From NCBI GenBank assembly GCA_964568855.1, contig CAZMSD010000003.1, positions 25,848 to 89,847 of the forward strand: a stretch of DNA of 64,000 nt. Reading direction: 5' to 3'. The notes beneath the pieces were generated by a model. That model saw nothing but the letters and a program-made list of their open reading frames with translations. It was not told the DNA's origin and did not search any database. Origin of the DNA: an uncultured Bacteroidaceae bacterium. GTDB taxonomy: Bacteria; CAIWAD01. This document shows, in pieces, positions 1-64,000 of the stretch; positions within the stretch are counted from its first letter, which is position 1; each line of letters starts with the position of its first letter. The translations under genes were made by a program, and so were the position numbers.

Positions 1-195
1 CAAGCCCGGGAAGGATATCGCGCCGGTCGCCTGCCTTTCCTCGACCTCATCGACGCGCAACGAACCCACTCAACAGTCGAACAACGTGCGCTGACCCTGC
101 GCAGGGACCTCGTCCTTGCCTCGGCGGAGCTGATGAGCTTGGCCGGTGCGGGCGCCTATGCTGAGAACGAATCGAAAAACGGAGAAGAACAATGA
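1..195 (+). CDS. Partial CDS: C-terminal end of an outer-membrane efflux factor (CzcC/TolC family) from a heavy-metal RND system.
   Basis: Frame 1 translates as QAREGYRAGRLPFLDLIDAQRTHSTVEQRALTLRRDLVLASAELMSLAGAGAYAENESKNGEEQ*, a typical outer-membrane-factor C-terminal helix. The stop TGA (193-195) overlaps the ATG at 192 of the next gene (ATGA), which suggests operon coupling with the downstream fusion-protein and RND genes. Confidence 0.55.
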   Translation, partial: QAREGYRAGRLPFLDLIDAQRTHSTVEQRALTLRRDLVLASAELMSLAGAGAYAENESKNGEEQ

Positions 196-1742
196 TCCAA
201 TCCCACGCATTGAAGACGCTCCCGGTGCTGTTGATCGCCCTGGTCTGCGGTTGCGGTGGGAGCAGCACGGAAACCCGGGAGCCCGCCGGGGACGAAACGG
301 CCGCCTTCTGCTCCGAGCACCAGGTTGCCGAAGCCATTTGCGCCTGGTGCAATCCAGGGCTGATCGAGTCGCTGGGTTTCTGCCGCGGCCACGGAGTGCC
401 CGAGGCCTTCTGCTACCGGTGCAACCCGGCCTTGATTCCAGCCTTCAAAGCGGTCGGCGACTGGTGCGCCGGGCACGACCGGCCGGAATCCCAGTGCTAC
501 ATCTGCAATCCCGGACTCGACCCTGCGCTTGAGGAGAGCACGCAAGAAGGCGGCGGCGACCTGCGCTCGCTGAAGGAGGATCACACAGCGATCCTGGGGC
601 CGCAGGGAGACCGCCCCGCACGTGTGCAGCAGCCGCCTTCGATCTCGTGCTCGAAGCAGGACCTGGTTGTGCGCTTCGAGACCCCGGCCGTTGCCCGTGA
701 TACAGGCATCGAATTGGCCGTCGTCGAGACCAGGCCGATCACCGAGACCGTCGAATGCGGGGCCGTGATCGCCTACGACGGCAACCGTTTCGCGCATCTC
801 TCGTCCCTGGTGCCCGGTGTCGTCGAGGAAGTGCACAAGGACCTGGGAGAAGCGGTGGCGCCCGGTGAGGCCTTGGCCACGATAGCTTCGGCCCACCTGG
901 GCGCGGCCAAAGCGGTTCTGCTCCGGGCCCAGGCCGCGGTCGACCTGTGGGGGCGAAACCACGCCCGCGAGTCCGAACTGCTGGCCGGCGGGGTGTCCAC
1001 GGAAAGAGACCTGCTGGAGGCGCAGACCCGGCTCGAGGAAAGCCGGATCTCGCTCTCCGCGGCGGAGCACGCGCTGCTCGGTCTTGGTCTCAGCGAAAGC
1101 GGCATCGACGATGTCCTGTGCACAGGTGACACGAGCGCCCGGTACACCGTCAGGGCTTCCTTCCCCGCCGTCGTGGTCGAGCGACACGCGGTGATCGGCG
1201 AGCGGGCGGATCCCGCCGATCCACTCTTCGCCGTCGCCGACGTCTCGCGGATGTGGGCCATGCTCGATGTCTACGAGACGGACGCTCGCCACCTGCAACC
1301 CGGGCAGAATGCCGTGATCCACGTGGAAGGACTGCCCGGGGAGGCCTTCGGGGGCCGAATCGACTGGGTCGATCCGCGCGTCGATCCTCGAACACGCACC
1401 CTCCGCGCCAAGGTCGAACTGGACAACGCGAGCGGACTGCTGCGGGCCGACATGTTCGCCCGGGCCGAGGTGCTGCTCAGGGACAGTCACCCGGCGCTTG
1501 TCGTACCGGTCTCGGCCGTGCAGTGGGAGGGCTGCTGCAACGTGGTCTTCGTCAGGCGGTCCGAGACGGTCTACGAACCGCGCAAGGTCCGCCTGGGTCT
1601 GGCCACGGGGACGCTCTACGAAGTCCTCGGCGGTGTCGGCGCCGGCGAACAGGTCGTCACACAGGGAAGCTTCCTGCTGAAGACCGAGATCCTCAAGGGC
1701 AGCATCGGCGCCGGTTGCTGCGAGGTGGATCCCGGGGCTTGA
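192..1742 (+). CDS. Membrane fusion protein of a heavy-metal RND efflux system (CzcB/CusB, HlyD family), with an N-terminal Cys/His-rich metal-binding repeat region.
   Basis: 516-aa ORF. It has an N-terminal signal/TM segment, then three tandem repeats of the pattern C-x2-H...C-x2-C-N-P-x-L (CSEHQVAEAICAWCNPGL / CRGHGVPEAFCYRCNPAL / CAGHDRPESQCYICNPGL). The remainder is a typical membrane-fusion barrel-sandwich with coiled-coil and beta-barrel regions. It sits directly upstream of the CzcA-like pump. Confidence 0.85.
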   Translation: MIQSHALKTLPVLLIALVCGCGGSSTETREPAGDETAAFCSEHQVAEAICAWCNPGLIESLGFCRGHGVPEAFCYRCNPALIPAFKAVGDWCAGHDRPESQCYICNPGLDPALEESTQEGGGDLRSLKEDHTAILGPQGDRPARVQQPPSISCSKQDLVVRFETPAVARDTGIELAVVETRPITETVECGAVIAYDGNRFAHLSSLVPGVVEEVHKDLGEAVAPGEALATIASAHLGAAKAVLLRAQAAVDLWGRNHARESELLAGGVSTERDLLEAQTRLEESRISLSAAEHALLGLGLSESGIDDVLCTGDTSARYTVRASFPAVVVERHAVIGERADPADPLFAVADVSRMWAMLDVYETDARHLQPGQNAVIHVEGLPGEAFGGRIDWVDPRVDPRTRTLRAKVELDNASGLLRADMFARAEVLLRDSHPALVVPVSAVQWEGCCNVVFVRRSETVYEPRKVRLGLATGTLYEVLGGVGAGEQVVTQGSFLLKTEILKGSIGAGCCEVDPGA

Positions 1743-1790
1743 GGATCGTCCGGATCGAGCGCACCGAGGTCGTTTCACGGCCGCGCTTGA

Positions 1791-4700
1791 GTGCTGCAAG
1801 TTCGAATGAGGAATCGACTCGTGCTTAACGCTATCATCACCTGGTCCCTGGGCCACCGTTTCCTGGTCATCGCCTTGACTCTCGCGCTGCTGGCGACGGG
1901 TGTGCTGACACTGATGCGCCTGCCCGTGGACGCCTTTCCCGACACGACGCCGGTGCAGGTGCAGATCAACACGGTGGCGCCGTCGCTGGCTCCGCTGGAA
2001 ATCGAGCAGCAGATCACGTTTCCGGTTGAGCAGGCCATCGCGGGGCTGCCGGGACTGGAGGAGGTCCGCTCGATCTCCAAGTTCGGCCTGTCCCAGGTCA
2101 CGACCACCTTCGACGATCGCACGGAGATCTACTTCGCCCGCCAGTTGATCATGGAACGTCTGCAGGCCGTCGAACTGCCGGAGGGCGTTCCACGCCCGGA
2201 AATGGGTCCCGTGGCCACCGGGCTGGGCGAGATCTTCCACTACGTGCTGACCAGTTCCAGGCACAGCCTGATGGAGCTTACAACGCTTCACGACTGGGTC
2301 ATCAAGCCGCGATTGCGCTCCGTGGCCGGCGTCGCCGAGGTGAACACCTGGGGCGGCGAGCGCAAGCAGTATCACGTGCTGGTCGATCCCCTGCGGCTGG
2401 TGAAGCACGATTTCACCCTGGACGACGTGCTGCGGGCTCTCGCGGCGAACAACCTGAACGTGGGCGGGGGCTACATCGTCCAGGCCGGCGAGCTGCACCT
2501 GGTGCAGGGGATCAGTCTCACAACAAACCTCGAGCAGATCGGCAACATCGTCATCGCGGCGCAGAATGGAATCCCCATCCGCATCCGGGACGTGGGCGAG
2601 GTGAAGGAGGGACACGAGATCCGCCGGGGCGCCGTGACGGCCAACGGGGAAGGCGAGGTCGTACTCGGTCTCGGCTTCATGCTGATGGGCGAGAACAGCC
2701 GGGATGTGAGCTCGCGCCTGCGCCTGCGCATGGAGGAGATTCGTGATACGCTGCCGGAGGGCGTCGACGTGGCGATCGTGTACGAGCGGACCGAACTCGT
2801 CGACAAGGTGCTGCACACGGTCCGGGAGAACCTGCTGCTGGGAGCGCTGCTGGTGATCGCCGTGCTCTTCGCCTTCCTGGGACACCTGCGCGCCGGACTG
2901 ATCGTCGCCGCGGCGATTCCACTGTCGATGCTCTTCGCCGCCCAGGGAATGCTCTACCTGGGCATCGCCGGCAGCCTGATGAGCCTGGGAGCGATCGATT
3001 TCGGGCTGATCGTGGACAGCTCGGTGATCATGATCGAGAACAGCGTGCGACGGCTGGCCTCTTCCGCGCGGCGCTCCTCCGTCCTGGAAACGGTCCGCGA
3101 GGCGGCGCTCGAAGTGCGCAAGCCGACCATGTACGGCGAGTTGATCATCGCGGTCGTGTTTCTGCCGGTGCTCACCCTCGAGGGCCTGGAGGGGCGGCTC
3201 TTCCGTCCGATGGCCTTGACGCTGCTCTTCGCCCTCGCCGGTTCCCTGGTACTTTCGCTGACCCTGATGCCCGTGCTGGCCAGCCTGGTGCTCAAGGGCG
3301 GGATCCGCGAGCGGGAGAACTGGTTCGTGCGCGGGGCGAAGCGCATCTACGAGCCCGTAGTCGCCTTCGCGATTCGCCGCCGGCGGGTCGTGCTCGCCGC
3401 GACTCTGGCCCTGCTGGCCGGGGGCGGAGTTCTCGCCACACGCATTGGCTCGGAGTTCATCCCGCGCCTGTCGGAAGGCGGGATCGTGATCAACACCGTG
3501 CGCCTGTCGGGGGTTTCCCTGGAGGAATCCGTGCGCTACGGCACACAGCTCGAAAAAGTGATCATCGAGAAATTCCCCGATGAAGTGCGCGACGTATGGG
3601 TCCGCACTGGTACGGCGGAGGTGGCCACGGACCCCATGGGGATCGAGCTCTCAGATGCCTTTGTGACCCTGCACCCCAGGAACCGGTGGACGCGCGCCCG
3701 GACCCAGGACGAACTGGTGGCGCAGATGAGCGAGGAACTCTCCGGGCTCCCGGGGATGCGGCTGATTTTCACCCAACCCATCGAAATGCGGGTGAACGAG
3801 ATGATCGCCGGCATTCGCACGGACGTGGGGATCAAGATCTTCGGCGACGACCTGGAGCGACTGCGGGACCTGGCGACGCGGGTGGGCGACATGGTGGGCG
3901 ACATCGACGGCGCCGCCGACCTCTACGTGGAACAGATCACGGGGCAGCCCCTGCTCCAGGTGCGCGTGGACCAGGATGCGGCGGCGCGTCACGGGGTGGC
4001 GGCCAGGCAGGTGATGCAGATCGTCGAGGCCATCGGAGGTGTTACGGCAGGGGAAATCCGCGAGGATCAGCGGCGATTCGATCTTGTCGTACGCCTGCCC
4101 GAGCGCCACCGGGACGACCCCGGGATGGTGGGCAGGATCCTTGTGCCGACTGCGGAGGGCGGCCGCATTCCACTGGAGCGTCTTGCCGAGATTCGGCAGA
4201 TCGAGGGCCCGTCGACGATCACGCGGGAGTGGCAGCGCCGCCGGATCGTGGTGCAGTGCAACGTGCGCGGTCGCGACGTGGGAGGTTTCGTGGATGATGT
4301 CCGGGAGCGCATCGCCGCCGAGATCACGCTCCCCGACGGATACTACCTGAGCTTCTCCGGGCAGTTCGAGCACATGGAGCGGGCCCGGCAACGGCTGATG
4401 ATCGTCGTGCCGCTGGCGCTGCTGCTGGTCTTCTTCCTGCTTCACGCGAGCATGAACTCGGTCCGCGATGCACTGATCATTTTCACCGGAGCGCCCTTCG
4501 CCGCCATTGGCGGCCTGGCGGCGCTGTTGATCCGCGGCATGCCCTTTACCGTCTCCGCCGGAGTGGGTTTCGTCGCTGTCTCGGGAGTGGCGATGCTCGC
4601 GGGCCTGGTCCTGGTTTCCACCATGCAGCGGTTCCTGAAGAACGGGGCGCCTCTTGAGGAGGCCATCACGCAGAGCTCCCTGACCCGGCTCAGGCCCGTG

Positions 4701-4886: not shown

Positions 4887-5098
4887 ACCATTTTCCGCTT
4901 TGCGCGGAGCCCCGCATTCATTATCCTTGGATGAGGGTGAGCTCCCCTGAATAGTATCCATTGTTAAATGGAGGAGGGCGCTATATGGACGAGGTTTACG
5001 AGGAAACTCGCAAGTAACGCACGGGAGCCGGTCATGGAGACCGGAACCCGCGAATGGGCGTGAGCCTATTCCGGCAGCCAAGGCTGCCAGAAATCATA

Positions 5099-5126: not shown

Positions 5127-5141
5127 CCAGCAGGTGGAGAC

Positions 5142-5972
5142 ATGCCTGAACTTCCAGAGGTGGAAACGGTGGTCCGGCAGTTGCGGCCGGCCCTCAAGGG
5201 CCGCGTGATCCACGGAGCGCGGATCGTCGATCCCAAGCTCCGGCCGCTTGTCGAAGGGCGTCGCCGGGGGGAGACCATGCTGCGCGGCGCGGCGATCGAA
5301 GAGGTCTTCCGGGCGGGCAAGCATATCGTGATACATACCGAGTTGAGGACCGGGAAAGCCGCCTGGCTGGCGATCCACCTGCGGATGACCGGCCGTCTGT
5401 ATCACAAATCGCGGGCCGACCTGTCCGAGGAGCAGCGGCGCCACCTGCGGATGGAGATCGAACTGGACCGCGGACGGCTCTATTTCGTCGACACCCGGCG
5501 CTTCGGCACGGCGCGACTGCTCTTCGCGCCCGAGGCGTTCAGGCCCGCCGGGACGGATCCGCTGTCGGCGGAACTCGGCGCCCGGGAACTGAAGCGGCTG
5601 ATAGCGGGAAGCCGGCAGCAGATCAAGTCCTGGCTGCTGCGCCAGGACCGCCTGGTGGGTCTGGGAAATATCTACGCGGCCGAAGCTCTGTACGCGGCGG
5701 GCATCGATCCCGCGCGGCAGGCCGGTTCCATGTCGAACGACGAAGTCAGGCGGCTGCACCGGCAACTGCGGCGAATCCTGCGTGCGGCGATCAGGATGTG
5801 CGGCACCACCTTCTCCGACTTCCAGGACACCCGAGGCCTCGAGGGCGGATTCCAGGCCGCGCTCAAGGTCTACGGCAGGGAAGGCGAGCGCTGCCCGCGC
5901 TGCGGGGAGACCGTAAAACGCTACAGCCAGCAGCAGCGCAGCACCTTCTGGTGCCCGGGCTGCCAGGCGTGA
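5142..5972 (+). CDS. mutM: Formamidopyrimidine-DNA glycosylase (Fpg/MutM).
   Basis: The N-terminus MPELPEVETV carries the catalytic Pro2/Glu3 signature. The C-terminus has the zinc finger CPRCGETVKRYSQQQRSTFWCPGCQ. An RBS GGTGGAGA lies upstream of the ATG at 5142. The 5109 start in the ORF track is probably too far upstream. Confidence 0.85.
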   Translation: MPELPEVETVVRQLRPALKGRVIHGARIVDPKLRPLVEGRRRGETMLRGAAIEEVFRAGKHIVIHTELRTGKAAWLAIHLRMTGRLYHKSRADLSEEQRRHLRMEIELDRGRLYFVDTRRFGTARLLFAPEAFRPAGTDPLSAELGARELKRLIAGSRQQIKSWLLRQDRLVGLGNIYAAEALYAAGIDPARQAGSMSNDEVRRLHRQLRRILRAAIRMCGTTFSDFQDTRGLEGGFQAALKVYGREGERCPRCGETVKRYSQQQRSTFWCPGCQA

Positions 5973-5997
5973 CACAACCCGAGGAGCGCATGCACCC

Positions 5998-7059
5998 GTG
6001 ACACAAGACCACGACACGATCCTGGATTTCCGCTCCGACACGGTGACGCAGCCCTGCCCGGCGATGCGCCGGGCGATGGCCGAAGCGGAGGTGGGCGACG
6101 ACGTCCTGATGGACGATCCCACGGTCCGGCGGCTGGAAGCGATCTGCGCCGAGCGCTTCGGTCGCGAGGCGGCGCTGTTCGTGCCCTCCGGGACCATGGC
6201 CAACCTGATCGGCGTGGCCCTGCACTGCGAGCGGGGCGACGAGCTGATCCTCGAGCGGCGCACCCACTCCTTCGCCTTCGAGGTGGGCGGTCCCGCGGCG
6301 CTGCTGGGAGTGCTGGTCAACCCGGTGGACTGCGATTCGGGTTTCCTGGAGGCGGCAGCCCTGGATGCGACCATCCGCCCGCGCAACGTGCACATGCCCG
6401 TCAGCAGGCTGGCCATAATCGAGAACACTTCCAACATCGCCGGCGGGCTGGTGGTTCCGCTGGAGCGCATCCGCGAGTTGCGGAGCGTCTGCAGCGAACG
6501 CGGCCTGGCCCTGCACATGGACGGCGCCCGGATCTGGAACGCCGCCGCGGCATCGAGAACCGGCCTTAAGGAATACGCCGCGGAGGTGGACAGTCTCTCC
6601 TGCTGCCTCTCCAAGGGCCTGGGCTGTCCCGTGGGTTCGCTGGTGGTGGGCGACGCGGAGCAGATCCACAGGGCGCGCCGGTTGCGCAAGATGATGGGCG
6701 GCGCCATGCGCCAGGTGGGCATCCTGGCCGCTGCCGGAATCTACGCCCTCGAGCACAACGTCGATAGGCTGGCCGAGGATCACGCCCTGGCGCGCGAACT
6801 GGCGGCGGTCCTGGGATCGCTGCTGGGAGACGCGGTCTCGATCTCCGAACCGGAGAGCAACATGGTCCTGGTCCGCATGAAACATGCGGACCAGGCGCAG
6901 ATCTTGTTGAAGACCTGGAACGATCACGGCATCCGGGCCCTGACGGTCGATCCGGTGACCATTCGCCTGGTGACGCATCTCGATCTGTCCCGCGATGCCG
7001 CGAAGCTGCTCAAAGAGCGGACGCCGCCGCTCCATAGCGTGCCGGCGGGTGAGTCCTGA
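5998..7059 (+). CDS. ltaE: Low-specificity L-threonine aldolase (PLP-dependent).
   Basis: 353 aa with a GTG start. It carries the threonine-aldolase signature DFRSDTVTQP and the fold-type I PLP motif SGTMANL. Confidence 0.8.
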   Translation: MTQDHDTILDFRSDTVTQPCPAMRRAMAEAEVGDDVLMDDPTVRRLEAICAERFGREAALFVPSGTMANLIGVALHCERGDELILERRTHSFAFEVGGPAALLGVLVNPVDCDSGFLEAAALDATIRPRNVHMPVSRLAIIENTSNIAGGLVVPLERIRELRSVCSERGLALHMDGARIWNAAAASRTGLKEYAAEVDSLSCCLSKGLGCPVGSLVVGDAEQIHRARRLRKMMGGAMRQVGILAAAGIYALEHNVDRLAEDHALARELAAVLGSLLGDAVSISEPESNMVLVRMKHADQAQILLKTWNDHGIRALTVDPVTIRLVTHLDLSRDAAKLLKERTPPLHSVPAGES

Positions 7060-7073
7060 AGCGCGAGGAATGC

Positions 7074-9284: not shown

Positions 9285-11197
<1,913 letters not shown>

Positions 11198-14547: not shown

Positions 14548-14860
14548 GTGTGGGCGAGGTGACACGAAGCATGTATCCGGAATCAACAAGCGACGTACCG
14601 TGCGGCACTGTGTGTCACGACATGGCGGCACTCGATCTCACATCGTGTGATGAGCGCTCTCCTGCACCGATGATGATTCATGCGTCACCATCAGGCGAGC
14701 AGCGGCGGCCTTCGTGCGCCCGGCAGCCACTGGGAGTCCGTCGGTTTCGGCTAGATGGAGGAAATTCCGGTACAGGCGGATTTGAAGCGGCTTCGCCCCG
14801 CGCCAAATGTCACATTACTCTTTGCTGTTGAGGTACTGAAACAACGATGAGGATCAACCG

Positions 14861-15841
14861 ATGCGCTTCGCGATTTCCGTTCTGCTCCTTGCCGCACTGT
14901 GGGCCGCGCCCTGCCTCGCCGCGCCTCCCCTGCCGGTCGACGACCTGCAGATCGATTTCCTCCCGACCGGGGACGCAGTCCTGAGCTGGAACGCTCCCTC
15001 GCTGGACACGGAGGGCAATCCCCTCGTGGTGGACCGCTACCTAGTGCACTCCTCCCCCGATCCGCACTTCGAACCCGACACGGGTACGCTGCGCGCCGAA
15101 GTCGTGCAAACTTCCTGGACGGACGCGATGTCCTGGGACCTTCCTCCCCGGCGCTTCTATCGCGTGGTGGTAGAGGGCGAGGGCCACGCCTTTCTCTCGG
15201 GGCAGGTCGCCTGGTATCCCTTCGAGGGTAACGCCGACGACGCCGGCGGCAACGGGTATCACGGCCAGCTGCTTGGAGCAGCCAGCGCCCAGGGAACGCT
15301 GGAAATCGGCGACAACGACGAAGACGCGGTGGCTCTTCCGGGGGCCGTGTTCGACGGGCTGCAGGATTTCACCATCGCGGCGAGCCTGCGCTTCAATTCC
15401 CTGCACGCGAGCTGTCCCTCGGGATTCACGCCCGGCCACAGCCTGGTCAACTGCGGAACCCCGATGCAGGTCAACACGCTCTGGCTGATGTATCACCCTC
15501 CCGCCCACGGCTGGATCGTCTACGTCTACGGCAGCCACTTCCTGGAGATCTTCCCCGTGCCCGCGGAAGAATGGTATCACGTGACCTTCGTCCGCCAGGG
15601 CTGGCAAGTGACCCTGTATTACGAAGGCGGGGAGACCGGTTCGGTGGGCGGCATTCAACCGGCGCCGATCGATGCCTGGGACGGGGGCTGCTTCCTGGGC
15701 CAGGACCAGGACGTCTTCGGCGGCATGTTCGAGGCCTGCCAGTCCCTCAACGGCGGAATGGACGACTTGAGAGTCTTCGACCGCGCTCTGGATCCCGGCG
15801 AGGTGATGCAGCTTTACCTGCTGGATACCGGCGGAGAGTAG
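14861..15841 (+). CDS. Secreted protein with an N-terminal FN3-like segment and a concanavalin/LamG-like jelly-roll domain.
   Basis: It has a signal peptide MRFAISVLLLAALWAAPCLA. The LamG-like region runs from WYPFEGNADDAGGNGYHGQL through LRVFDRAL; this is a pattern match only. Confidence 0.55.
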   Translation: MRFAISVLLLAALWAAPCLAAPPLPVDDLQIDFLPTGDAVLSWNAPSLDTEGNPLVVDRYLVHSSPDPHFEPDTGTLRAEVVQTSWTDAMSWDLPPRRFYRVVVEGEGHAFLSGQVAWYPFEGNADDAGGNGYHGQLLGAASAQGTLEIGDNDEDAVALPGAVFDGLQDFTIAASLRFNSLHASCPSGFTPGHSLVNCGTPMQVNTLWLMYHPPAHGWIVYVYGSHFLEIFPVPAEEWYHVTFVRQGWQVTLYYEGGETGSVGGIQPAPIDAWDGGCFLGQDQDVFGGMFEACQSLNGGMDDLRVFDRALDPGEVMQLYLLDTGGE

Positions 15842-21917: not shown

Positions 21918-23605
<1,688 letters not shown>

Positions 23606-25639: not shown

Positions 25640-25719
25640 GCCGGCCGGCGGCACGCACGTCGGGCTCATTCCATCGCTAATTGCCTGTAACACAGAGCCC
25701 CAGGCCGTAAAATCCGGAT

Positions 25720-38454: not shown

Positions 38455-38494
38455 CAAATCCGCGGGACCGATCCTGGATTCAACGAGGAAGGAA

Positions 38495-42130: not shown

Positions 42131-42185
42131 TCCGTCTCCTTTGTGATACATTTGCGCCCGCTCGACCTCCCCAATCCGGGCTGTG

Positions 42186-43787
<1,602 letters not shown>

Positions 43788-43851
43788 CGTGATACCTGTG
43801 TGTTTGTCTGTGATTCGATGTTTGTGTCCGCGCCAGTGTCACCGCTGATAC

Positions 43852-54080: not shown

Positions 54081-54321
54081 TGTACCGATTCCCGGCGTCA
54101 GGGCCCAGACCGGACCTTCCGCCGCTTCCCCGTTTGAAACGGCCTAATTAGCCATGTTATCTCTGGAATGTCAAAGTATTTAAGGTTTAACTAACATTGT
54201 CCGGGGTGTAGTTCATCATTGCTGACCGCTTGAGAACTCCAAGTCAGGGAGCTTTTGCCTAAATTGCCGTATAGATCAACAGATCTGCATCAACAGCATC
54301 ACGTGATACAGCAGGGAGGAG

Positions 54322-55140: not shown

Positions 55141-55214
55141 TCAAGGAAACCGGGGACCCGCCGCAGCGAACCCCCGGTTGGATTCCGTGATACAAATGCC
55201 GCCCGGCGCGGGAC

Positions 55215-56021: not shown

Positions 56022-56154
56022 CGCTGCAACTCCATTTCGTGTCACACCGGGCCCCTTCCGGACCTCGGCTTCCACCCGCCGGCGCATTTCATCGAGATCC
56101 GGCCCCGTGCCCGTCGCGCCCGGATCCTCGAAGCAGTCCCTCAGCGGGTCCCGG

Positions 56155-56823
56155 TCAGCACCGCTGTCCGCCGAGTCCCTCGTCCCGGACGATTTCTTCG
56201 ATGTCATGATCCAGCTCCTTTTCCCTGTGCCGGCCGATCACCGCGAGCGGCAGCCCGCCTTCCAGCAGTCCGCGCAGCTCGCGGCGCGCCCGGCTCAACC
56301 GCGACTTGGAGGCGCTGAGGCTCTCGCCCAGCATTTCGGAGATCTCAGGCAGGCTGAAACCGGCCACGTAATACAAGAGCACGATCCGTCTGCGGGCCGG
56401 ATTAAGCCTGGCCAGCGCGGCCCTTAAGTGCATCCGGCGCAGGTTCATCTCGTGCGGATCACCCGCGCAATCGGCGCTTTCGAAGCGTCCTTTGAACCCG
56501 GGTCCGGCGGCCTCCCCGGCGCCCGCCGTTGGCCTTCCGTCCTCTCCGCGGCGAGGAGCGTCGAGCGAGCGGAAGCGGCGCCAGAATTCCCGCTTGCGCT
56601 GCCTCCCGGCCTCGTTGGCCAGGATGCGGAAGATCCAGGCCCGGAATTTCCCGCGGTCCCTGAGCCGTTTGAAGGAACACAGGCCGATCAGCAGGCTCTC
56701 CTGCAGCAGGTCCTCCCAGCGTTCCGGCAGCGTGTGGCGCGCGAAGGCGCACAGGCGGCCGTAGAGGGGTTCGACCTCCCGCCAGAACTGCTCATCGTTT
56801 CGCGACGTCGGCTGATGCATCAT
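56155..56823 (-). CDS. ECF-type RNA polymerase sigma-70 family factor.
   Basis: Region 2 is ESLLIGLCSFKRL...FRAWIFRILANE. Region 4 is RRIVLLYYVAGFSLPEISEMLGESLSASKSRLSRARREL. The protein is 222 aa. Confidence 0.8.
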   Translation of the reverse strand: MMHQPTSRNDEQFWREVEPLYGRLCAFARHTLPERWEDLLQESLLIGLCSFKRLRDRGKFRAWIFRILANEAGRQRKREFWRRFRSLDAPRRGEDGRPTAGAGEAAGPGFKGRFESADCAGDPHEMNLRRMHLRAALARLNPARRRIVLLYYVAGFSLPEISEMLGESLSASKSRLSRARRELRGLLEGGLPLAVIGRHREKELDHDIEEIVRDEGLGGQRC

Positions 56824-57000: not shown

Positions 57001-57261
57001 TCAGGGTGCTTCATTCCCGGATGATCCCCCCTTCGGCGCGTCGTCCGCGGAGGTATCACCGGTCGCTGCGTCCTTGGGAGATTCTTTCGCCGGCTCGTCC
57101 TCACCGCGCTCGCCCTTGGCGGGCTGCTCATCGAAGAGCATGCGCAGGGCGGGCGTCTTCAGGTCGTCGAACTGCCCGCTCCGTGCGGAGCGGATGAAGG
57201 CGACCAGCATTCCCGCGGCGATCAGGACGGCCAGGGGCAGGACGAGGTAGATCACGGACAT
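57001..57261 (-). CDS. ccoS: cbb3-type cytochrome oxidase maturation protein CcoS/FixS, with an acidic C-terminal tail.
   Basis: MSVIYLVLPLAVLIAAGMLVAFIRSARSGQFDDLKTPALRMLFDE matches the CcoS consensus. The protein is 86 aa with a ~35-aa Glu/Asp/Lys-rich tail. Its start overlaps the ccoI stop. Confidence 0.7.
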   Translation of the reverse strand: MSVIYLVLPLAVLIAAGMLVAFIRSARSGQFDDLKTPALRMLFDEQPAKGERGEDEPAKESPKDAATGDTSADDAPKGGSSGNEAP

Positions 57262-59759
57262 GTTCGGTCCTTCACGAGAAAGGTCCTGGACTTGTAGCTG
57301 CTGGTAACCACGGTGATGGAACTCAACGGCATCAGCAGGGCCGCCGCGAGGGGATGGATCATCCCCGCCACGGCCAGGCCGGCGCCCACGATATTGTAGC
57401 ACAGAGAGAAGACAAGGTTCCTGCGTATCACGCCCACGGTCCGCCGCGAGCCCTCGACCAGGTCCGCCACTGCGAAGATCCCGGGCTCGGTGAGGAAGAC
57501 GTCCGCCGCCGCCAGGCTGGCCTCGGCGCCGCCGTGAACGCTGATTCCCACGGTGGCCGCTGATAGTGCCGCCGCGTCGTTGACCCCGTCACCGACCATC
57601 AGCACCGTTTCCCGGCGGGCTGCCTCCTCGACTACGGCCAGTTTCTCCTCGGGCAGGACCCCGCCGCGGCAGGCCGCCGGATCCAGCCCCAGCGCATCGG
57701 CCACGCGGGCGACCACCCGGGGGTGATCGCCGGAAATCATCTCCAGCTTCCAGCCGAGACTCTCGAGCCTGCGCAGGGTGGACTCGGCGTCGGGGCGCAG
57801 GGGATCGCCCATCCCGGCGACGCCGCAGACCCTCCCGTCCACCGCCACAACCACGGGGCTCAACGCCTCGTCCACCATGGACTCCACCGCCCGGGCGTTC
57901 TCCCCGTCCAGCGGACCGAGTTCGCGCGCCGCGTACGCGGGCGATCCGACCAGCACCCTCCGTCCCCGCACGAGTCCCTGAACTCCTCCGCCCATGACCT
58001 GCCGGAAATCCTCGGGCGGTTCGGCGTCTTCCCTCGTCTCGCCCGCGGCGAAATGTCTCACGAAGGCCCGCGCCACGGGGTGGTTCGAGTGGCGCTCAAG
58101 CTCCGCCGCCAGCCGCCCGGTCTCTTCCCGGCCCTCCCAGCGGACCAGGGCCATCCGGCCCTCCGTCAGGGTCCCGGTCTTGTCCAGCAGCAGGCGTCCC
58201 GGCCGGCTCAGCGCCTCCACCACGTCGCCGCCCTTGATCAACAGGCCCGCGCGGGCCGCCCGGCCCACGGCCACGCTGACCGCCAGGGGAGTGGCCAGGC
58301 CCAGAGCGCAGGGACAGGTGACGATCAGCAGGGCTACCGTGTGATCCACCGCCCGCGACGGGTCCAGCCAGGCCCAGAGCAGCCCGGTGAAGGCCGCCAG
58401 CCCCAGCACGATCGCCACGAACCATCCGGCCAGCCGGTCCGCCATCCGGACCAGGGGCGCCTTGCGCCGGGCGGCCTCTTCCACGATGCGCATCAGGCGC
58501 CCAACGCGGGTGTTCTCGCCCGTCCCGCGGACCCGCAGCAGCAGCGGGGCGCCGAGGTTCAGCGTGCCGGCGTGCACCTCGTCTCCCGGTGACACGTCCA
58601 CGGGCCGCGACTCGCCGGTGATCAGCGAGAGGTCGAGCGTCGAACGTCCCTCCACGATCTCGCCGTCCGCGGGGACGGAGCCCTCCGCCGGAACCTCCAC
58701 CAGATCCTCCGGGAGCAGGGCCTCCACAGGCACTTCCCGCACCCGGCGCGGGATTCCGTTCTCCCCGTCGCTTCTTTCCTCTACGCGCCTGGCCGAGGAC
58801 GGGGCGAGCGAATAGAGCAGTTCGGCGGCGTCCGAGGCTTCGCGCTTCCGCCGGCGCTCGAGCCAGCGGCCGACCAGCAGCAGGAAGATCAGCATGGTCA
58901 CCGAGTCGAAGTAGATCTCCCCGGAGGAACGGACCGTGTTGACCAGGCCGGCGACGAAGCCGACGCCGATGCCCAGCGAGATGGGCAGATCCATGTGCAG
59001 GGTCCGCGTGCGCAGGGCGCCCCAGGCCCCGCGGAAGAACAGGCCCGCCGAGTAGAGTACCGCGGGCAGGGCGATCAACAGGCTGGACCAGTGAAAGTAG
59101 CGCTCGTGCCGGAGGTCCATGCCCCCGGGAATGCTCCCGTAGAGGGCGATGGCGATCAGCATCACGTTGCCCGCCGATGCGGCGGCCACGGCGATGCGGA
59201 TCAGCAGCCGGCGATCCTCGCGGCGCCTGATCTCGCGGATTCTGACTCCCCGGTAGGGATGGACGGGATAGCCCAGCGAATCGATGAAGCGGGCGATGTT
59301 CGAGAGCGGCGTGTCAGCGGGATTCCAGGTGATACTCGCCACCGATCGTCCGATGTCCAGCCGGGCCTCGTGAACGCCCGGCACGGCCAGGGGCACTTTC
59401 TCCACCAGCCAGACGCAGGCGGCGCAGTGCACGCCTTCGAGGTAGAGCTCGACCCGCCGCAGGTCCCCGCCTGCGGGCGGGCAATAGAGTTCCATGAAGG
59501 CCGGGTCGTCGTACTCCTCGTAGCTGCGCCCGCCTCCGCCGGCGCTTCGCGGTTCCTCGCCCACCGTCCGCGCGACCTCGTAATACTGCTCGAGCCCGTG
59601 GCGGTGAATCACCTCGTAGACGGTCCGGCAGCCGTTGCAGCAGAACTGCTCCCCGGCGTCCTCCACCACCAGGCCCCGCGGGACCGGCAGTCCGCAGTGA
59701 GTGCAGTGGACGGATTCCGCCCCCCGCTCAGGGTTTCGCGCCGTGTTCACTGGCGCCAC
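57252..59759 (-). CDS. ccoI: Copper-translocating P1B-type ATPase CcoI/FixI.
   Basis: The N-terminus has CTHCGLPV and FCCNGCRTVYEV, then an HMA motif GVHCAACV. Eight TM helices are predicted. Motifs include CPC (VTCPCALGLA), DKTGTLT, MVGDGVNDAAAL and TGES. It is embedded in the cco cluster. Confidence 0.9.
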   Translation of the reverse strand: MAPVNTARNPERGAESVHCTHCGLPVPRGLVVEDAGEQFCCNGCRTVYEVIHRHGLEQYYEVARTVGEEPRSAGGGGRSYEEYDDPAFMELYCPPAGGDLRRVELYLEGVHCAACVWLVEKVPLAVPGVHEARLDIGRSVASITWNPADTPLSNIARFIDSLGYPVHPYRGVRIREIRRREDRRLLIRIAVAAASAGNVMLIAIALYGSIPGGMDLRHERYFHWSSLLIALPAVLYSAGLFFRGAWGALRTRTLHMDLPISLGIGVGFVAGLVNTVRSSGEIYFDSVTMLIFLLLVGRWLERRRKREASDAAELLYSLAPSSARRVEERSDGENGIPRRVREVPVEALLPEDLVEVPAEGSVPADGEIVEGRSTLDLSLITGESRPVDVSPGDEVHAGTLNLGAPLLLRVRGTGENTRVGRLMRIVEEAARRKAPLVRMADRLAGWFVAIVLGLAAFTGLLWAWLDPSRAVDHTVALLIVTCPCALGLATPLAVSVAVGRAARAGLLIKGGDVVEALSRPGRLLLDKTGTLTEGRMALVRWEGREETGRLAAELERHSNHPVARAFVRHFAAGETREDAEPPEDFRQVMGGGVQGLVRGRRVLVGSPAYAARELGPLDGENARAVESMVDEALSPVVVAVDGRVCGVAGMGDPLRPDAESTLRRLESLGWKLEMISGDHPRVVARVADALGLDPAACRGGVLPEEKLAVVEEAARRETVLMVGDGVNDAAALSAATVGISVHGGAEASLAAADVFLTEPGIFAVADLVEGSRRTVGVIRRNLVFSLCYNIVGAGLAVAGMIHPLAAALLMPLSSITVVTSSYKSRTFLVKDRTCP

Positions 59760-60540
59760 TTTCCTCCTCCTGCTCCTCTTTGCAGCAGGGTAGTTCCCAG
59801 GGATTCTGCGTCTCCGTCCCCCGATCCAGGGCCACCGCCGATTTCAGCCGGGCGAAGCGCTCGACGGGAATCGCCGCCCGGTCGATCACGGTGTAGGCGC
59901 CGATCGCGATCAGGACCAGGGCGCTGACCAGCGGCAGGTGCCGGCGCAGCGGTCCCGCCAGGAACTGCACGCCGAAGCCCAGTCCGAGCATCACGGGCAC
60001 CGTCCCCAGCCAGAAGGCGGCCATCACCAGGGAGCCCAGGGCCGGGTGCCCGGTGCCGGCTGCGGTGATGGCGAAGGCGTAGAGCCAGCCGCAGGGCAGC
60101 AGGGCGGAAAGCAGGCCCAGCGTCAGGGCGCGTATCACGGGCGGTTTCCCTCCGATCCCTCCCAGGAGGCGACCCAGCAGTCGCTGGATCCCTGAGGGCA
60201 GCCGGGCGCCGATCTGCAGTCCACGGATCTGCAGCAGCATCATCAGGCCCCAGAGAATCATCAGGCCGCCGGCCACCAGCGCGCCCCCGCGCTGCAGCCC
60301 GGCCGCCGCTCCGGCCAGGTCGAGGGCCGCGCCCAGCGCCCCGGCGGCGGCTCCCAGCAGGCCGTAGGCCACCAGCCTTCCGCCGTTGTAGGCCGTGTGA
60401 GACGCGATCCGCGAGAGGCCCGCGCTCTGGTCGGCGCCGGCGTAGAAAGCCACGAATCCGCCGCACATGCCCGCGCAGTGCAGGCTGCCCAGCAGGCTGG
60501 CGGCCAGAACGGCTCCGTACAGCGCGATCACGACGGTCAC
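59728..60540 (-). CDS. DsbD_2/UreH-like polytopic membrane protein with an HCxxMCGG motif, inserted between fixH and ccoI.
   Basis: 270 aa with ~6 TM helices. It contains LGSLHCAGMCGGFVAFY plus a second Cys pair. The family is DsbD_2, a cytochrome c biogenesis / metal transporter-like family. Confidence 0.55.
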   Translation of the reverse strand: MTVVIALYGAVLAASLLGSLHCAGMCGGFVAFYAGADQSAGLSRIASHTAYNGGRLVAYGLLGAAAGALGAALDLAGAAAGLQRGGALVAGGLMILWGLMMLLQIRGLQIGARLPSGIQRLLGRLLGGIGGKPPVIRALTLGLLSALLPCGWLYAFAITAAGTGHPALGSLVMAAFWLGTVPVMLGLGFGVQFLAGPLRRHLPLVSALVLIAIGAYTVIDRAAIPVERFARLKSAVALDRGTETQNPWELPCCKEEQEEESGASEHGAKP

Positions 60541-61100
60541 TCCTCCGGCGCGCCGCCGCCCGCCGCGGCTTCCAGCAGGCGGGTCTGGACGCTGGTGAAG
60601 CGCTCGCCGCTCCGGCGCACCTCGGAGCGGAATTCCCAGAGTCCCGGCGGCCCCAGGCGCAGGGCCGCGCCGTATCCGTCGGCCAGGGGCGGCAAGGCCG
60701 CTTCGATCCGGTGCCCGGACCAGGCGTTGTGGAAGCAGGAGACGCGGATCTCCGCGCCCGCGAGCCTCGTCCCCGCGCCGTCCAGCAGACGGCAGAGCAG
60801 CAGCGTGTTCGGCGGTCCGGCTTCCGGCAGCGCGCCGGCCATTCCCTCGGGGACGGGCTTGAAGTCCAGCTCGAGCAGCCAGCCCAGTTCGCGGTTGTAT
60901 TTCCGCTGGGCGGCGGTCTCGTCCCAGTCGAGGGCCTTGCGGTAGTAGTCCGGCTCCACGGCATGTGAGGGATCCTTGTGCGCGTTGTAGACCAGCGCCG
61001 CGTTGATCAGGGCCATCAGCGCCAGCAGACCGACCACGATCCAGGGCCAGTACCAGCCTGTATTACGCCGTCCGCCGCCGGAGTTCTTCCGCTCGCTCAT
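60537..61100 (-). CDS. ccoH: FixH/CcoH family protein.
   Basis: It has an N-terminal TM segment (WYWPWIVVGLLALMALINAALVY). Conserved FixH-like segments follow (DYYRKALDWDE..., ELGWLLELD). It lies between ccoG and ccoI. Confidence 0.7.
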   Translation of the reverse strand: MSERKNSGGGRRNTGWYWPWIVVGLLALMALINAALVYNAHKDPSHAVEPDYYRKALDWDETAAQRKYNRELGWLLELDFKPVPEGMAGALPEAGPPNTLLLCRLLDGAGTRLAGAEIRVSCFHNAWSGHRIEAALPPLADGYGAALRLGPPGLWEFRSEVRRSGERFTSVQTRLLEAAAGGGAPEE

Positions 61101-61124: not shown

Positions 61125-62657
61125 CTAGTCGCCGATCCCCGGTCCCAGCAGGCGGCATTCCCGCTGCTCGCTGAACTCCACGCTGTCCGTGATCGCGAAC
61201 ACGGCCTGCGCGAAGCCGCGGCTGAATTCCTCCCGCCCCGCCACCACGAACACCCCGGCTGAGGCCATTTTCCCGCCTTCCACCACCAGCGGATTCAAGG
61301 GAGCGATCATCCGTGCATTCTCCGGTTCATCCAGGCGCAGCCAGTAGCTGCGCGTTTCATTCGCCCGGTTCCAGATCTTGATCCGAACGGCGTTGGAGAT
61401 CCCGCCGTCATTAAGGACCGCGTAGGGATCTCCCAGCCCGCGCAGCATGGTCACTTCCGCGCTCTCCCGGGCCGCGAGCTGCATGGCCATCAAGCCGAAG
61501 ATCAGGGCCAACAGCGCGGGATAGAAAACCAGCCGCGGGCGGAAGAAGCGGCGCCGGCCGGTTTCGATCTCGCTCTGGCTGCCGTAGCGCACCAGTCCCC
61601 GCGGATAGCCGATCTTATCCATCACATCGTCGCAGGCGTCGATGCACTGGGTGCAGTGGATGCATTCGAGCTGCAGGCCTTCGCGGATGTCGATTCCCGT
61701 GGGGCACACGGCGACGCAGTGATTGCAGTCGATGCAGTCCCCGCTTTCCTCCGCACGCTTCCCCTTGCGTAGCTTTTTCCGCGGTTCTCCGCGCCGCCGG
61801 TCGTAGGCCACGATGAGCGAGTCGGTATCGAGCAGCACGGACTGGAAACGACCGTAGGGGCAGGCCACGATGCAGGTCTGCTCCCGGAAATAGGCGAAGT
61901 CGACGAAGACCAGCCCCGAGGTCACCAGCATCACCAGGAAGCCGGCGAGGTGATCCGGCGGGGAGCCCGTGATCCAGACCAGCAGCGTATCCGTGCCCAC
62001 CCAGTAGGCCAGGAAAGTGTTGGCCAGGACGATCGAGATCAACAAGAAAAGCAGGTGCTTCACCAGGCGCCGGGGCTTGAATCCCCCGGCCCGGTCCATG
62101 CGGTGCTGGGTCACGTAGTCGCCCTCGATCAGGCGCTCCAAGGGCCGGAAGAGGTATTCCATGTAGACCGTCTGCGGGCAGCCCCAGCCGCACCACGCGC
62201 GTCCCAGCAGGGCGGTGAGCAGGAAGATGCCGAGTAGGATGCCCACCATCAGCAGCATCAGCAGGATCGAGTCCGTGGGCATGAAGGTGGTGCCGAAGAA
62301 GGTGAACTGACGCCGGGGCAGGTCGAAGAGCATCCAGGGCTTGCCGTTCATTCTCAGGTGCGGAATGGCCAGGTAGAGGACCACCAGGAACCAGGCCGTG
62401 AACATCCGCAGCCGGTAGAACCGGCCCCTGGCCAGTCTCGGCCGCAGCCAGCGGCGCGACCCATCCTTGTTGAGCGTGGACAGTACCCGATCGGGGGCTT
62501 CGAGAAATGGTCCTGCACTCACCTGGCGCTTCCTTTCAGCTGGAGATCCGTCGCCCGGCACGGCGGCCCGGCGCGCCTCTCGCCCGCCATGAGCAAAGAA
62601 CGGGGAGGCCACCGTCGCCCGTGCCTGTAACACGGTACCGCGCTTCCGGTATGACAT
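61125..62657 (-). CDS. ccoG: Cytochrome c oxidase accessory protein CcoG/FixG (polyferredoxin-like).
   Basis: TM helices are present. It has two ferredoxin-type CxxCxxC motifs (CGWGCPQTVY; CIDCNHCVAVCPTGIDI; CIHCTQCIDACD). The protein is 510 aa. Confidence 0.85.
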   Translation of the reverse strand: MSYRKRGTVLQARATVASPFFAHGGREARRAAVPGDGSPAERKRQVSAGPFLEAPDRVLSTLNKDGSRRWLRPRLARGRFYRLRMFTAWFLVVLYLAIPHLRMNGKPWMLFDLPRRQFTFFGTTFMPTDSILLMLLMVGILLGIFLLTALLGRAWCGWGCPQTVYMEYLFRPLERLIEGDYVTQHRMDRAGGFKPRRLVKHLLFLLISIVLANTFLAYWVGTDTLLVWITGSPPDHLAGFLVMLVTSGLVFVDFAYFREQTCIVACPYGRFQSVLLDTDSLIVAYDRRRGEPRKKLRKGKRAEESGDCIDCNHCVAVCPTGIDIREGLQLECIHCTQCIDACDDVMDKIGYPRGLVRYGSQSEIETGRRRFFRPRLVFYPALLALIFGLMAMQLAARESAEVTMLRGLGDPYAVLNDGGISNAVRIKIWNRANETRSYWLRLDEPENARMIAPLNPLVVEGGKMASAGVFVVAGREEFSRGFAQAVFAITDSVEFSEQRECRLLGPGIGD

Positions 62658-63412: not shown

Positions 63413-63691
63413 CTATCTCCTTGTCTTCGAAGCCTGAGCCTCGCTTTCTTCTTCGACGAAGCCGGGTCCGTGCTCCGAGATCCTTCCCTCTCCCCCGGCC
63501 GGCTGCTTCCCGCTCGCTCCGGCAGGAACGCCGTCCTCGAGGGGCAGGGAACTCAGTTCATCCAGCTTGCCGCGATGCGACTGGATCATCAGGCGCAAGG
63601 CGATGACCAGGAACACCACCAGGAAAATCAACAATCCAGCGATGGCGTACCCGGCCAGTCCTGAAGCTCCCATGATCTCGGATAGACTCAT
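63413..63691 (-). CDS. ccoQ: Small membrane protein, candidate CcoQ/FixQ.
   Basis: 92 aa with one N-terminal TM helix (GLAGYAIAGLLIFLVVFLVIAL) followed by a hydrophilic tail. It lies between ccoO and ccoP. Confidence 0.45.
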   Translation of the reverse strand: MSLSEIMGASGLAGYAIAGLLIFLVVFLVIALRLMIQSHRGKLDELSSLPLEDGVPAGASGKQPAGGEGRISEHGPGFVEEESEAQASKTRR

Positions 63692-63723
63692 TTTCGTCCC
63701 TATGATCGAAACATCCGATCGAA

Positions 63724-64000
63724 TCAGGGCCGGTTCCGGTCCACCGCAGGGCGGCCTGTCATGCCGGCGGAATTCTCGTCGCTCATGGTGGCTTCACCCT
63801 CGGCCACGGAATTCCTGATGTCGCTTCCCAGCCGCTGCATGTAAGCCAGCAGGGCGATCACGTCGCGGTCCGAAAGATCCCGCTCGTAGCCTTGCTCCAT
63901 CAGGCCCCGGGCCAGCTCATCGGCTTGCCGGCGGGCCATCCCGGAGGCCTTGTTGATCGCCTCCCCGTAGGGCACGCCCAGCATGGCCATGGCGTCAACC
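63724..64000 (-). CDS. ccoO: Partial CDS: C-terminal end of cbb3 oxidase subunit CcoO (or fused CcoNO), running off the window edge.
   Basis: The visible C-terminus (...VIALLAYMQRLGSDI...) resembles the CcoO C-terminus. The frame continues beyond position 64000. Confidence 0.55.
   Translation of the reverse strand, partial: VDAMAMLGVPYGEAINKASGMARRQADELARGLMEQGYERDLSDRDVIALLAYMQRLGSDIRNSVAEGEATMSDENSAGMTGRPAVDRNRP

Follow-up and report, generated by a model that had tools for sequence, protein, structure and literature searches.

The word GTGATAC is enriched in every permitted reading frame of a 64-kb bacterial chromosome stretch and may serve as a lineage-specific self-tag of DNA

How does a GC-rich bacterial chromosome come to be strewn with a short word that has to be written in rare codons? 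The question is raised by a stretch of 64 kb (65.5% GC, ~91% coding, roughly 45 genes; called the window in the following), which appears, in part by a type IX secretion sorting domain in one of its proteins, to stem from a Delongbacteria-like lineage of the Fibrobacteres-Chlorobi-Bacteroidetes (FCB) group and for which an excess of the heptamer GTGAYAC and its complement GTRTCAC had been predicted. Exact matching on both strands across the window finds 26 sites of GTGAYAC and 26 of GTRTCAC, 52 in total, against a zero-order expectation of 11.6, and the 'about four-fold' over-representation of the original prediction is right for that null. All 43 positions listed there are present, two of them shifted by 1 nt (correctly 14612 and 43836), and 9 further sites had been missed. 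When 7-mers are counted against Markov backgrounds of orders 0-3, GTGATAC/GTATCAC, with 33 sites where about 2-5 are expected (2.2-4.6 for orders 1-3; z = 13-21), is the highest-scoring word of the window, followed by GTGACAC (19 sites) and GTAATAC (12 sites). Beyond what had been predicted, GTAAYAC is enriched as well, bringing the number to 69 sites (~1.1/kb), the excess is ~6-fold against a codon-aware null, and the word is common to some relatives and absent from others.

Could the excess be a by-product of what the genes encode? Genes were called from third-position GC content and Pfam matches, with concordant JGI calls on the same contig, and synonymous codons were shuffled within each gene in 1000 replicates. 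In coding DNA, GTGATAC/GTATCAC occurs 29 times against 3.9 expected from this null (simulated maximum 11), GTGACAC/GTGTCAC 15 times against 3.2, GTAATAC/GTATTAC 12 times against 2.1 and GTAACAC/GTGTTAC 4 times against 0.8, and the pooled GTRWYAC amounts to 60 against 9.8, ~6-fold. If all k-mers are scored in the same way, the word family provides the three most enriched 7-mers. Non-coding DNA (5.0 kb) contains 8 sites against 0.69 expected, the site density being 1.8/kb there and 1.0/kb in coding DNA. Relative to transcription, sense sites are ~11-fold and antisense sites ~7-fold enriched, and after allowing for coding constraints there is no orientation bias with respect to genes. Moreover, the excess appears in both orientations and in each frame in which the word can be read without a stop codon: xxG TAT CAC is observed 13 times and expected 2.3 times, xGT ATC ACx 4 and 0.8, GTA TCA Cxx 4 and 0.01, GTG ATA Cxx 5 and 0.43, xGT GAT ACx 3 and 0.31, and GTG ACA Cxx 9 and 1.1. 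The predicted make-up from rare codons in all frames is thereby borne out, GTA TCA C being the extreme example. An excess over a codon-aware null that extends to all frames, to both orientations and to DNA outside genes places the pressure on the DNA word and not on the protein, as had been argued from the outset.

The choice of tyrosine codons illustrates how closely this pressure follows the word. TAT makes up 17% of the Tyr codons of the window, but when the preceding codon ends in G, there are 13 TAT-CAC and no TAC-CAC for Tyr-His, and 10 TAT-TAC and a single TAC-TAC for Tyr-Tyr. Without the preceding G there are 1 TAT and 3 TAC before CAC, and 1 TAT and 10 TAC before TAC; the preference for TAT is lost when either flank differs from G-TAT-YAC. 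Of the permissive tripeptides in the window, 71% of X-Tyr-His (spelled xxG-TAT-CAC), 50% of X-Tyr-Tyr and 44% of [CRSG]-Ile-Thr carry the word, and where very rare codons are required the share is 15-28%. Two explanations for the tyrosine pattern were rejected. Avoidance of GTAC does not account for G-TAT, since G-TAC is kept before GAC (8), GGC (5), TTC (5) and CTG (4), with no TAT in these contexts. A queuosine-related codon-pair effect (NAY-NAY; FolE and a Vut_1-family transporter are encoded in the window) fails because antisense and non-coding DNA are enriched too. As observations in their own right, GTAC is about two-fold depleted in coding DNA (93 against 179, synonymous-shuffle null), most severely in CTGTAC/GTACAG (7 against 41), with GTACA/TGTAC at 31 against 93; relatives scored against a Markov null show less of it (41 against 54 in L101, introduced below). 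The depletion could reflect a GTAC-type restriction system.

Is the word a property of this one genome? The word-bearing DNA examined comprises about 108 kb from three genomes, namely the window and two relatives, L101 (GCA_964345075.1; 57.9% GC, SdhA 84% identical) and L103 (62.8% GC, SdhA 83%). In L101, GTGATAC is the top 7-mer, with 34 copies in 21.9 kb (strands 19 and 15; 30 against 5.2 under the codon-aware null), the 8-mer GTGATACA occurs 24 times against 1.05 expected, enrichment of the 9-mer CGTGATACA reaches up to 40-fold, and up to 80-86% of the opportunities are filled. The two top 7-mers of L103 are GTGATAC (11) and GTGACAC (13). GTGATAC is absent from L098-L100 (SdhA 84%); in L098 no opportunity is filled by GTGATAC or GTAATAC, and two GTGTCAC are the sole motif-like sites. 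L102 (7.6 kb, 68.9% GC, SdhA 87%) likewise has no copy, and in two loci with a SpoVR about 66% identical, L086 and L089, the word is enriched about 2-fold at most. Control loci (L001-L080) were unrelated and had been retrieved through histidine ammonia-lyase (distant phyla, ~80% identity), 38 of them being about 21 kb long; the word was not enriched in the high-GC loci tabulated, and the top words of the 38 ~21-kb loci were unrelated to it. In a neighbour-joining tree of SdhA, a single-gene tree and as such indicative only, L101 and L103 fall together with the window, apart from the word-free genomes. These comparisons suggest that the pressure acts in a subclade of a Delongbacteria-like lineage and not in its sister lineages. 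L102 has an over-represented word of its own in its positions 1-7566, GGAGATA/GAGATAA, with 5 copies against 0.2-0.3 expected.

The three word-bearing genomes differ in their preferred variant in a dialect-like manner, and the same peptides are recoded between lineages: the Val-Tyr-His of SdhC reads GTG TAT CAC in L101 and L103 and GTC TAC CAC elsewhere. At some sites the amino acid itself is replaced, as in SdhB of L101, where Val-Leu-Arg has become Val-Ile-Arg (GTG ATA CGC), and tripeptides able to encode the word are 1.3-2.4 times commoner in word-bearing genomes than in L098. L101 and L103 share 70% protein identity, with third codon positions near saturation. Nevertheless, 9 of 29 sites of L101 (31%) are kept in L103, whereas random 7-mers are kept in 14% of cases (P = 0.017); with unchanged amino acids the figures are 8 of 11 (73%) and 30% (P = 0.005). 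Parallel gain at the same permissive peptides may account for some of these shared sites. At the strain level, the window was compared with JGI 3300009431 contig Ga0120401_1000113 (151 kb) and several assemblies from other samples, which are 99.9-100% identical; 28 positions vary, all of them outside word sites, at a diversity too low to polarise gains and losses. Separately, 18 of these 28 positions are packed into ~200 nt (32598-32801) within a hypothetical gene (32406-33071), a local diversity hotspot whose protein has no family match.

What is the shape of the word? Its form is asymmetric, roughly (not A)-GTGAYAC-R-n-G, and is best resolved in L101, where position -1 is Y, +1 is A/G and +3 is G, giving Y-GTGATAC-R-n-G; core counts there are 34 for GTGATAC, 0 for GTAATAC and 6 for GTGACAC. 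Of the single-mismatch neighbours, the majority of those altered at positions 1, 2(C), 4(G) and 7 are depleted, whereas 3(A), 4(T) and 5(C/G) give enriched variants. In coding DNA of the window GTR-W-YAC is found 60 times against 9.8 and GTR-S-YAC 6 times against 20 expected; GTACCAC and GTACTAC together are depleted (3 against 15) with GTATCAC and GTATTAC enriched, and all GTRNYAC words add up to 66 against 30 expected. A palindrome GTR-W-YAC with a methylated centre base, in which deamination would consume GTR-S-YAC, was considered and dropped: the depletion is mostly the general depletion of GTAC, total GTRNYAC is doubled, and the word of L101 is asymmetric and lacks GTAATAC. The composite 14-mer palindrome GTATCACGTGATAC of the original prediction does not hold either, as CAC directly precedes GTGATAC only 3 times among the 33 copies of the window, where by our own estimate about 1 is expected, and at none of the 34 in L101, and the asymmetry of the L101 motif speaks against half-sites of a dimeric protein. 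Nor do the intergenic pairs stand out as a distinct feature. Spacing of the 69 sites is Poisson-like (coefficient of variation (CV) 1.04), with an even spread over 8-kb bins; the 5 gaps of 40-55 nt, where 1.1 are expected, are not significant after scan correction (P = 0.15); and the three paired spacers (5969/5998, 14559/14612 and 43789/43836) fold no better than shuffled sequences (z 0.03-1.8). The word family ranks first in each third of the window scored separately.

What kind of process generates such a pattern? A lineage-specific, orientation-independent pressure on double-stranded DNA creates and retains the word, overriding codon preference and sometimes altering amino acids, and the word itself has ~7-9 informative bases, is asymmetric and occurs at ~1-2 copies/kb on both strands. 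Hyper-abundant short words are rare, and their readers include uptake receptors, for the uptake signal sequences (USS) and DNA uptake sequences (DUS), and RecBCD, for Chi. Signals of the Chi/KOPS type are strongly skewed to one strand of each replichore. The present word resembles the Chi and KOPS octamers as a short word over-represented through coding DNA, but differs in its equal distribution over the strands (26 and 26 in the window) and in the enrichment of both gene orientations, and the absence of strand bias had rightly been taken to argue against a polar signal. The classes proposed instead, uptake-signal-like and HIP1-like, are still the best analogies.

Our best guess, to which we assign a probability of roughly 0.38, is that GTGATAC serves as a self-tag in the manner of an uptake sequence and is maintained through bias in uptake and recombination. 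GTGATAC, the tolerated GTGACAC and GTAATAC and the weak flanks (not A)-core-R-n-G would together constitute a lineage-specific genomic self-tag, and a protein with specificity for the word would bias which DNA gets inherited. The likeliest reader may be the DNA-uptake receptor of a natural-transformation system: fragments with the word would have an advantage in uptake and recombination, and molecular drive would then let the word build up, as with USS in Pasteurellaceae and DUS in Neisseriaceae. What favours this reading is the asymmetry of the motif, the gradation of its flanks and its dialect-like variation from genome to genome; the mechanism is proposed by analogy because the data are limited to ~108 kb from three genomes with low strain diversity. 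USS (AAGTGCGGT core) and DUS (GCCGTCTGAA core) are likewise short asymmetric words present about once per kb and equally on both strands, lie mostly in genes in several frames, inflate the tripeptides that encode them, have graded variants alongside depleted single-mismatch words, occur in dialects, and are absent from related lineages. Uptake sequences have been reported at the same density, on both strands equally and mostly in coding DNA, and to about double the frequency of the tripeptides they encode (Findlay & Redfield 2009, PMC2817400). Graded enrichment of their variants is described by Bakkali 2007 (PMC1939737), and the set of shared features, differences between related genomes included, comes from three studies (PMC2817400, PMC1939737, PMC3630211).

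Several points weigh against an uptake tag. Its strongly specified core has only 7-9 bp compared to 9-12 bp in known USS and DUS, and the enrichment of the 7-mer is only 6-10-fold, up to 40-fold for the 9-mer in L101, compared with hundreds of fold for established uptake sequences. Intergenic copies in the window form no inverted-repeat terminators, which are frequent among neisserial DUS but do not define the class. The roughly 45 genes of the window, a small portion of the genome, include no type IV pilus, ComEA, ComEC, DprA or ComP-type minor pilin/uptake receptor. To our knowledge, sequence-specific uptake is known in only two proteobacterial families, and the host here is an uncultivated FCB-group lineage. 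The data are equally compatible with other word-favouring processes, e.g. biased repair or binding selection. Should an uptake tag or an equivalent exist here, we would tentatively see in it the first case, beyond Proteobacteria and Cyanobacteria, of a self-DNA tag with sequence specificity: a subclade of Delongbacteria (FCB group) would possess either a transformation system using (C/T)GTGATAC(A/G)nG or a hitherto undescribed repair or recombination system directed by this word, which recodes 70-86% of permissive tripeptides and shifts amino-acid usage.

Alternatively, the word could be akin to the highly iterated palindrome HIP1 (GCGATCGC) of cyanobacteria and owe its maintenance to biased repair linked to methylation, or else to selection on nucleoid organisation. 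Briefly, a methyltransferase or repair nuclease would read the word and near-cognate mismatches would be resolved towards it, a ratchet that leads to ~1/kb whatever the use of the word. We regard this as a serious rival, if a rather unlikely one, because it easily explains near-saturation, the ratchet working at every replication on all synonymous opportunities, and needs no competence system. HIP1 and alternate HIPs saturate near 1/kb, including degenerate versions such as rCCGGy and GCsGC, each being tied to a cognate methyltransferase (Elhai, PMC4390886), and the density of 1.1-1.8/kb found here matches this value; HIP1 also occurs in all frames and in rare codons, is strand-symmetric and is conserved between genomes (Xu et al. 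2018, PMC5861425). The parallels extend to sites kept between genomes above control words and to a word that is replaced or absent in some lineages, sister lineages included. The set found in the window can even be written as the degenerate palindrome GTR-W-YAC with GTR-S-YAC depleted, but that depletion is mostly the one of GTAC in general and the L101 form is clearly asymmetric, with no GTAATAC and unequal flanks, while the described HIPs are all palindromes and GC-rich; the present word is AT-richer than its genome, its enrichment of 6-10-fold lies under the 15-300-fold reported for HIP1, and it belongs to another phylum. No DNA methyltransferase is found among the roughly 45 genes of the window, itself a small part of the genome: the sole methyltransferase is the arsenite methyltransferase ArsM (18800-20010, minus strand; NCBIfam NF008823, 362 bits against a cut-off of 263), which adjoins an ArsR/SmtB-type regulator. 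Furthermore, how repair would favour HIPs is so far a hypothesis.

It could also be imagined that the word is the binding site of an abundant chromosome-associated protein for nucleoid organisation, segregation or occlusion, with occupancy selected across the chromosome. A signal in double-stranded DNA that is independent of orientation, the same word in genomes of 58-65.5% GC and the retention of sites between L101 and L103 above background would suit such a protein, and the word resembles half-sites of parS (GTGAAAC), matS (GTGAC) and SlmA sites (GTGAG). However, known organising sites of this type number tens per genome rather than ~1/kb and are not known to be forced into coding sequence with rare codons, selection per site is by our own reasoning too weak to fill 70-86% of synonymous opportunities, spacing is random and not regular, and no palindromic full site is enriched, which makes this explanation improbable. 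DnaA boxes, sites of integration host factor (IHF) and the half-sites of parS, matS and SlmA were considered as well, but neither the density nor the exact word agrees with any of them. A purely mutational, context-specific bias without reader or function, such as a polymerase or deamination hotspot, seems quite improbable. Several gains are single GC->AT transitions (TAC->TAT, ATC->ATA, GTGACAC->GTGATAC->GTAATAC), GTACCAC and GTACTAC are depleted and GTATCAC and GTATTAC enriched, and the effect is somewhat stronger in non-coding DNA; yet many sites require at least two changes against the GC-rich codon trend (GTC TCG->GTA TCA, CTG->ATA), depletion affects several positions of the word and not one hotspot base, the rise of total GTRNYAC from 30 to 66 could not, as we reason, come from conversion of the centre base alone, and a specificity of 7-9 nt persists in three genomes at ~70% protein identity and 58-65.5% GC. 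Finally, a by-product of protein motifs, codon usage, codon-pair preference or chance is so improbable that it can be considered excluded. About one third of the sites in the window are Tyr-His or Tyr-Tyr dipeptides, a few lie in PAS domains, and T-ending codons are generally preferred before C/T-starting ones (TAT-CCC 13, TAC-CCC 3); but the codon-aware null is exceeded in all frames, in both orientations and outside genes, TAT is preferred nowhere but in the complete G-TAT-YAC context, relatives with the same peptides use other codons, and two other genomes, as well as each third of the window on its own, give the same result.

A full-text search of a paper library returned no match for the GTGATAC heptamer; the kind of feature is known, and the word, the host lineage and the asymmetric form are new. 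Known hyper-abundant words each point to a sequence-reading machine that shapes genome evolution. Presence in a subclade and absence from its sisters provides a comparative design, in which genes common to the window's genome, L101 and L103 and missing in L098 and L102 would be candidate readers. The word could serve as a lineage marker for binning and for spotting foreign DNA and, if it promotes uptake, might find use in genetic tools. The case also illustrates a pressure at the DNA level that overrides codon usage and changes protein sequence.

The sites are distributed over an ordinary set of chromosomal genes, which includes two RND efflux systems, Fpg, SdhCAB, a protein with a type IX secretion system (T9SS) C-terminal sorting domain (CTD), PAS kinases, a PrkA-DUF444-SpoVR-PrkA operon, fumarase, FolE, Nth, an S8 peptidase, isocitrate dehydrogenase and accessory genes of a cbb3-oxidase; in the following each site is given with its strand and, within genes, its codons and peptide. 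The HlyD gene holds GTGATAC at 697..703 (+, CGT GAT ACA, RDT) and GTGACAC at 1126..1132 (+, GGT GAC ACG, GDT), and the AcrB gene GTGATAC at 2369..2375 (-, CAG TAT CAC, QYH) and 2743..2749 (+, CGT GAT ACG, RDT) as well as GTAACAC at 4039..4045 (-, GGT GTT ACG, GVT). In Fpg, GTGATAC is found at 5328..5334 (+, GTG ATA CAT, VIH) and 5399..5405 (-, CTG TAT CAC, LYH); GTGACAC at 5969..5975 (+) overlaps the TGA stop codon of this gene (5970-5972), and GTGACAC at 5998..6004 (+) begins at the GTG start codon of a threonine-aldolase-like gene (GTG ACA CAA). SdhA has three GTGATAC sites that document recoding: at 9383..9389 (-, AAG TAT CAC, KYH) L101 and L103 have identical codons and the motif-free L098 and L102 AAG TAC CAT; at 9738..9744 (-) GTA TCA CGC (VSR), with two rare codons, corresponds to GTG AGC CGC or GTC TCG CGC in L098 and L102 and to CTC TCG CGT in L101; and at 10635..10641 (+) GTG ATA CCT (VIP) corresponds to GTG ATC CCC in L101 and L103. 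The gene of the T9SS-CTD protein contains GTAATAC at 13464..13470 (+, TCG TAT TAC, SYY), GTGACAC at 13675..13681 (+, AGT GTC ACG, SVT) and GTAACAC at 13999..14005 (+, CGT GTT ACA, RVT), and the non-coding divergent spacer 14490-14860 contains GTGACAC at 14559..14565 (+) and 14612..14618 (-). A LamG gene follows with GTGATAC at 15256..15262 (-, GGG TAT CAC, GYH), 15490..15496 (-, ATG TAT CAC, MYH) and 15574..15580 (-, TGG TAT CAC, WYH) and GTAATAC at 15616..15622 (-, CTG TAT TAC, LYY).

In a PAS histidine kinase gene lie GTGATAC at 16965..16971 (-, CGT ATC ACG, RIT) and GTGACAC at 17204..17210 (+, GTG ACA CAC, VTH), in the arsenite methyltransferase gene GTGATAC at 18975..18981 (+, TGT ATC ACG, CIT), and in a further histidine kinase gene GTAATAC at 22145..22151 (-, GCG TAT TAC, AYY) and 23450..23456 (-, TTG TAT TAC, LYY) and GTGATAC at 22836..22842 (-, GTA TCA CGC, VSR). 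GTAATAC is present in an NtrC-type regulator gene at 24526..24532 (-, CTG TAT TAC, LYY), GTGATAC in a hypothetical gene at 25229..25235 (+, TGT GAT ACG, CDT) and GTAACAC in non-coding DNA at 25687..25693 (+). The OEP gene carries GTGACAC at 26182..26188 (+, GTG ACA CGG, VTR) and GTAACAC at 26228..26234 (+, CGT AAC ACG, RNT); the CusB-like gene carries GTGATAC at 27240..27246 (-, GTA TCA CAG, VSQ) and 28413..28419 (+, GTG ATA CGG, VIR) and GTGACAC at 27502..27508 (-, GGT GTC ACA, GVT) and 28500..28506 (+, GTG ACA CAC, VTH); and the CusA-like gene carries GTGATAC at 28547..28553 (-, AGT ATC ACC, SIT) and 30712..30718 (-, GTA TCA CAG, VSQ). The operon at 33512-40996 (+) consists of PrkA-DUF444-SpoVR and a second, divergent PrkA-like gene (833 aa), a four-gene order kept in L086 and L089. 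Its PrkA gene has GTGACAC at 35103..35109 (-, TGT GTC ACA, CVT) and 35351..35357 (+, GTG ACA CAG, VTQ; the same in L086, GTC ACC CAG in L089). SpoVR has GTGATAC at 37284..37290 (-, TTG TAT CAC, LYH; HYT in relatives), 37824..37830 (-, CCG TAT CAC, PYH; CCC TAC CAC in relatives) and 38238..38244 (-, CTG TAT CAC, LYH; LFH or LMH in relatives), and the second PrkA-like gene GTGACAC at 40355..40361 (-, GTG TCA CAG, VSQ) and GTGATAC at 40843..40849 (-, AAG TAT CAC, KYH; AAG TAC CAC in L089).

The PD40 gene has GTAATAC at 41411..41417 (+, TCG TAT TAC, SYY) and, in the longest-ORF (open reading frame) call, GTGATAC at 42143..42149 (+, ATG TAT CAC, MYH) with ATG as start codon, a site that the shorter JGI call (371 aa) puts upstream of the start. 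Fumarase follows with GTAATAC at 42540..42546 (+, GTG TAT TAC, VYY; GTG TAC TAC in L089); GTGATAC at 43789..43795 (+) is non-coding, 1 nt upstream of the fumarase start codon, and GTGACAC at 43836..43842 (-) lies in the non-coding FolE-fumarase spacer. The Vut_1 transporter gene contains GTAATAC at 44601..44607 (+, TGT ATT ACG, CIT), a PAS-GAF gene GTGACAC at 46676..46682 (+, GTG ACA CAG, VTQ) and 46766..46772 (+, GTG ACA CAA, VTQ), and the S8 peptidase gene GTGATAC at 48308..48314 (+, GAG TAT CAC, EYH) and 49835..49841 (+, TCG TAT CAC, SYH), GTGACAC at 49561..49567 (-, GTG ACA CCC, VTP) and GTAATAC at 50021..50027 (+, CCG TAT TAC, PYY). Non-coding GTGATAC copies are found at 54303..54309 (+), upstream of gene 54322-55140, at 55187..55193 (+), between convergent genes, and at 57053..57059 (-). 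A hypothetical gene has GTGACAC at 56039..56045 (-, GTG ACA CGA, VTR) and an ECF sigma gene GTAATAC at 56368..56374 (+, TTG TAT TAC, LYY). In the CcoI-type ATPase gene there are GTGATAC at 57425..57431 (-, GTG ATA CGC, VIR) and 59329..59335 (+, AGT ATC ACC, SIT), GTGACAC at 58589..58595 (+, GTG TCA CCG, VSP) and GTAATAC at 59580..59586 (+, CAG TAT TAC, QYY). The remaining copies are GTGATAC at 60132..60138 (-, GTG ATA CGC, VIR) in a hypothetical gene, GTAATAC at 61060..61066 (-, CGT AAT ACA, RNT) in gene 60537-61100, which has no family match and is guessed to be CcoH from its position only, and GTAACAC at 62627..62633 (+, GTG TTA CAG, VLQ) in CcoG.

The histidine ammonia-lyase gene (20232-21836, -) has no copy of the word in its 1.6 kb. 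Its product is 77-82% identical to homologues labelled Ignavibacteria, Chloroflexota, Acidobacteriota, Aminicenantes and others, and may be extremely conserved or horizontally mobile. Unlike this enzyme, SpoVR of the window has no relative above 67% identity, and a metagenome scan with SpoVR returned one relative at 59% identity. The coding DNA has further compositional traits: runs of C or G are avoided (CCCC/GGGG 488 against 804 expected, CCCCC/GGGGG 83 against 230), and GAAC/GTTC is mildly depleted (488 against 601; CGTTC/GAACG 99 against 162). Other coding words are enriched 2.7-4-fold, among them CGTAGAG/CTCTACG (25 against 8.2), CAATCCC/GGGATTG (15 against 3.8) and GAATTCC/GGAATTC (29 against 10.8).

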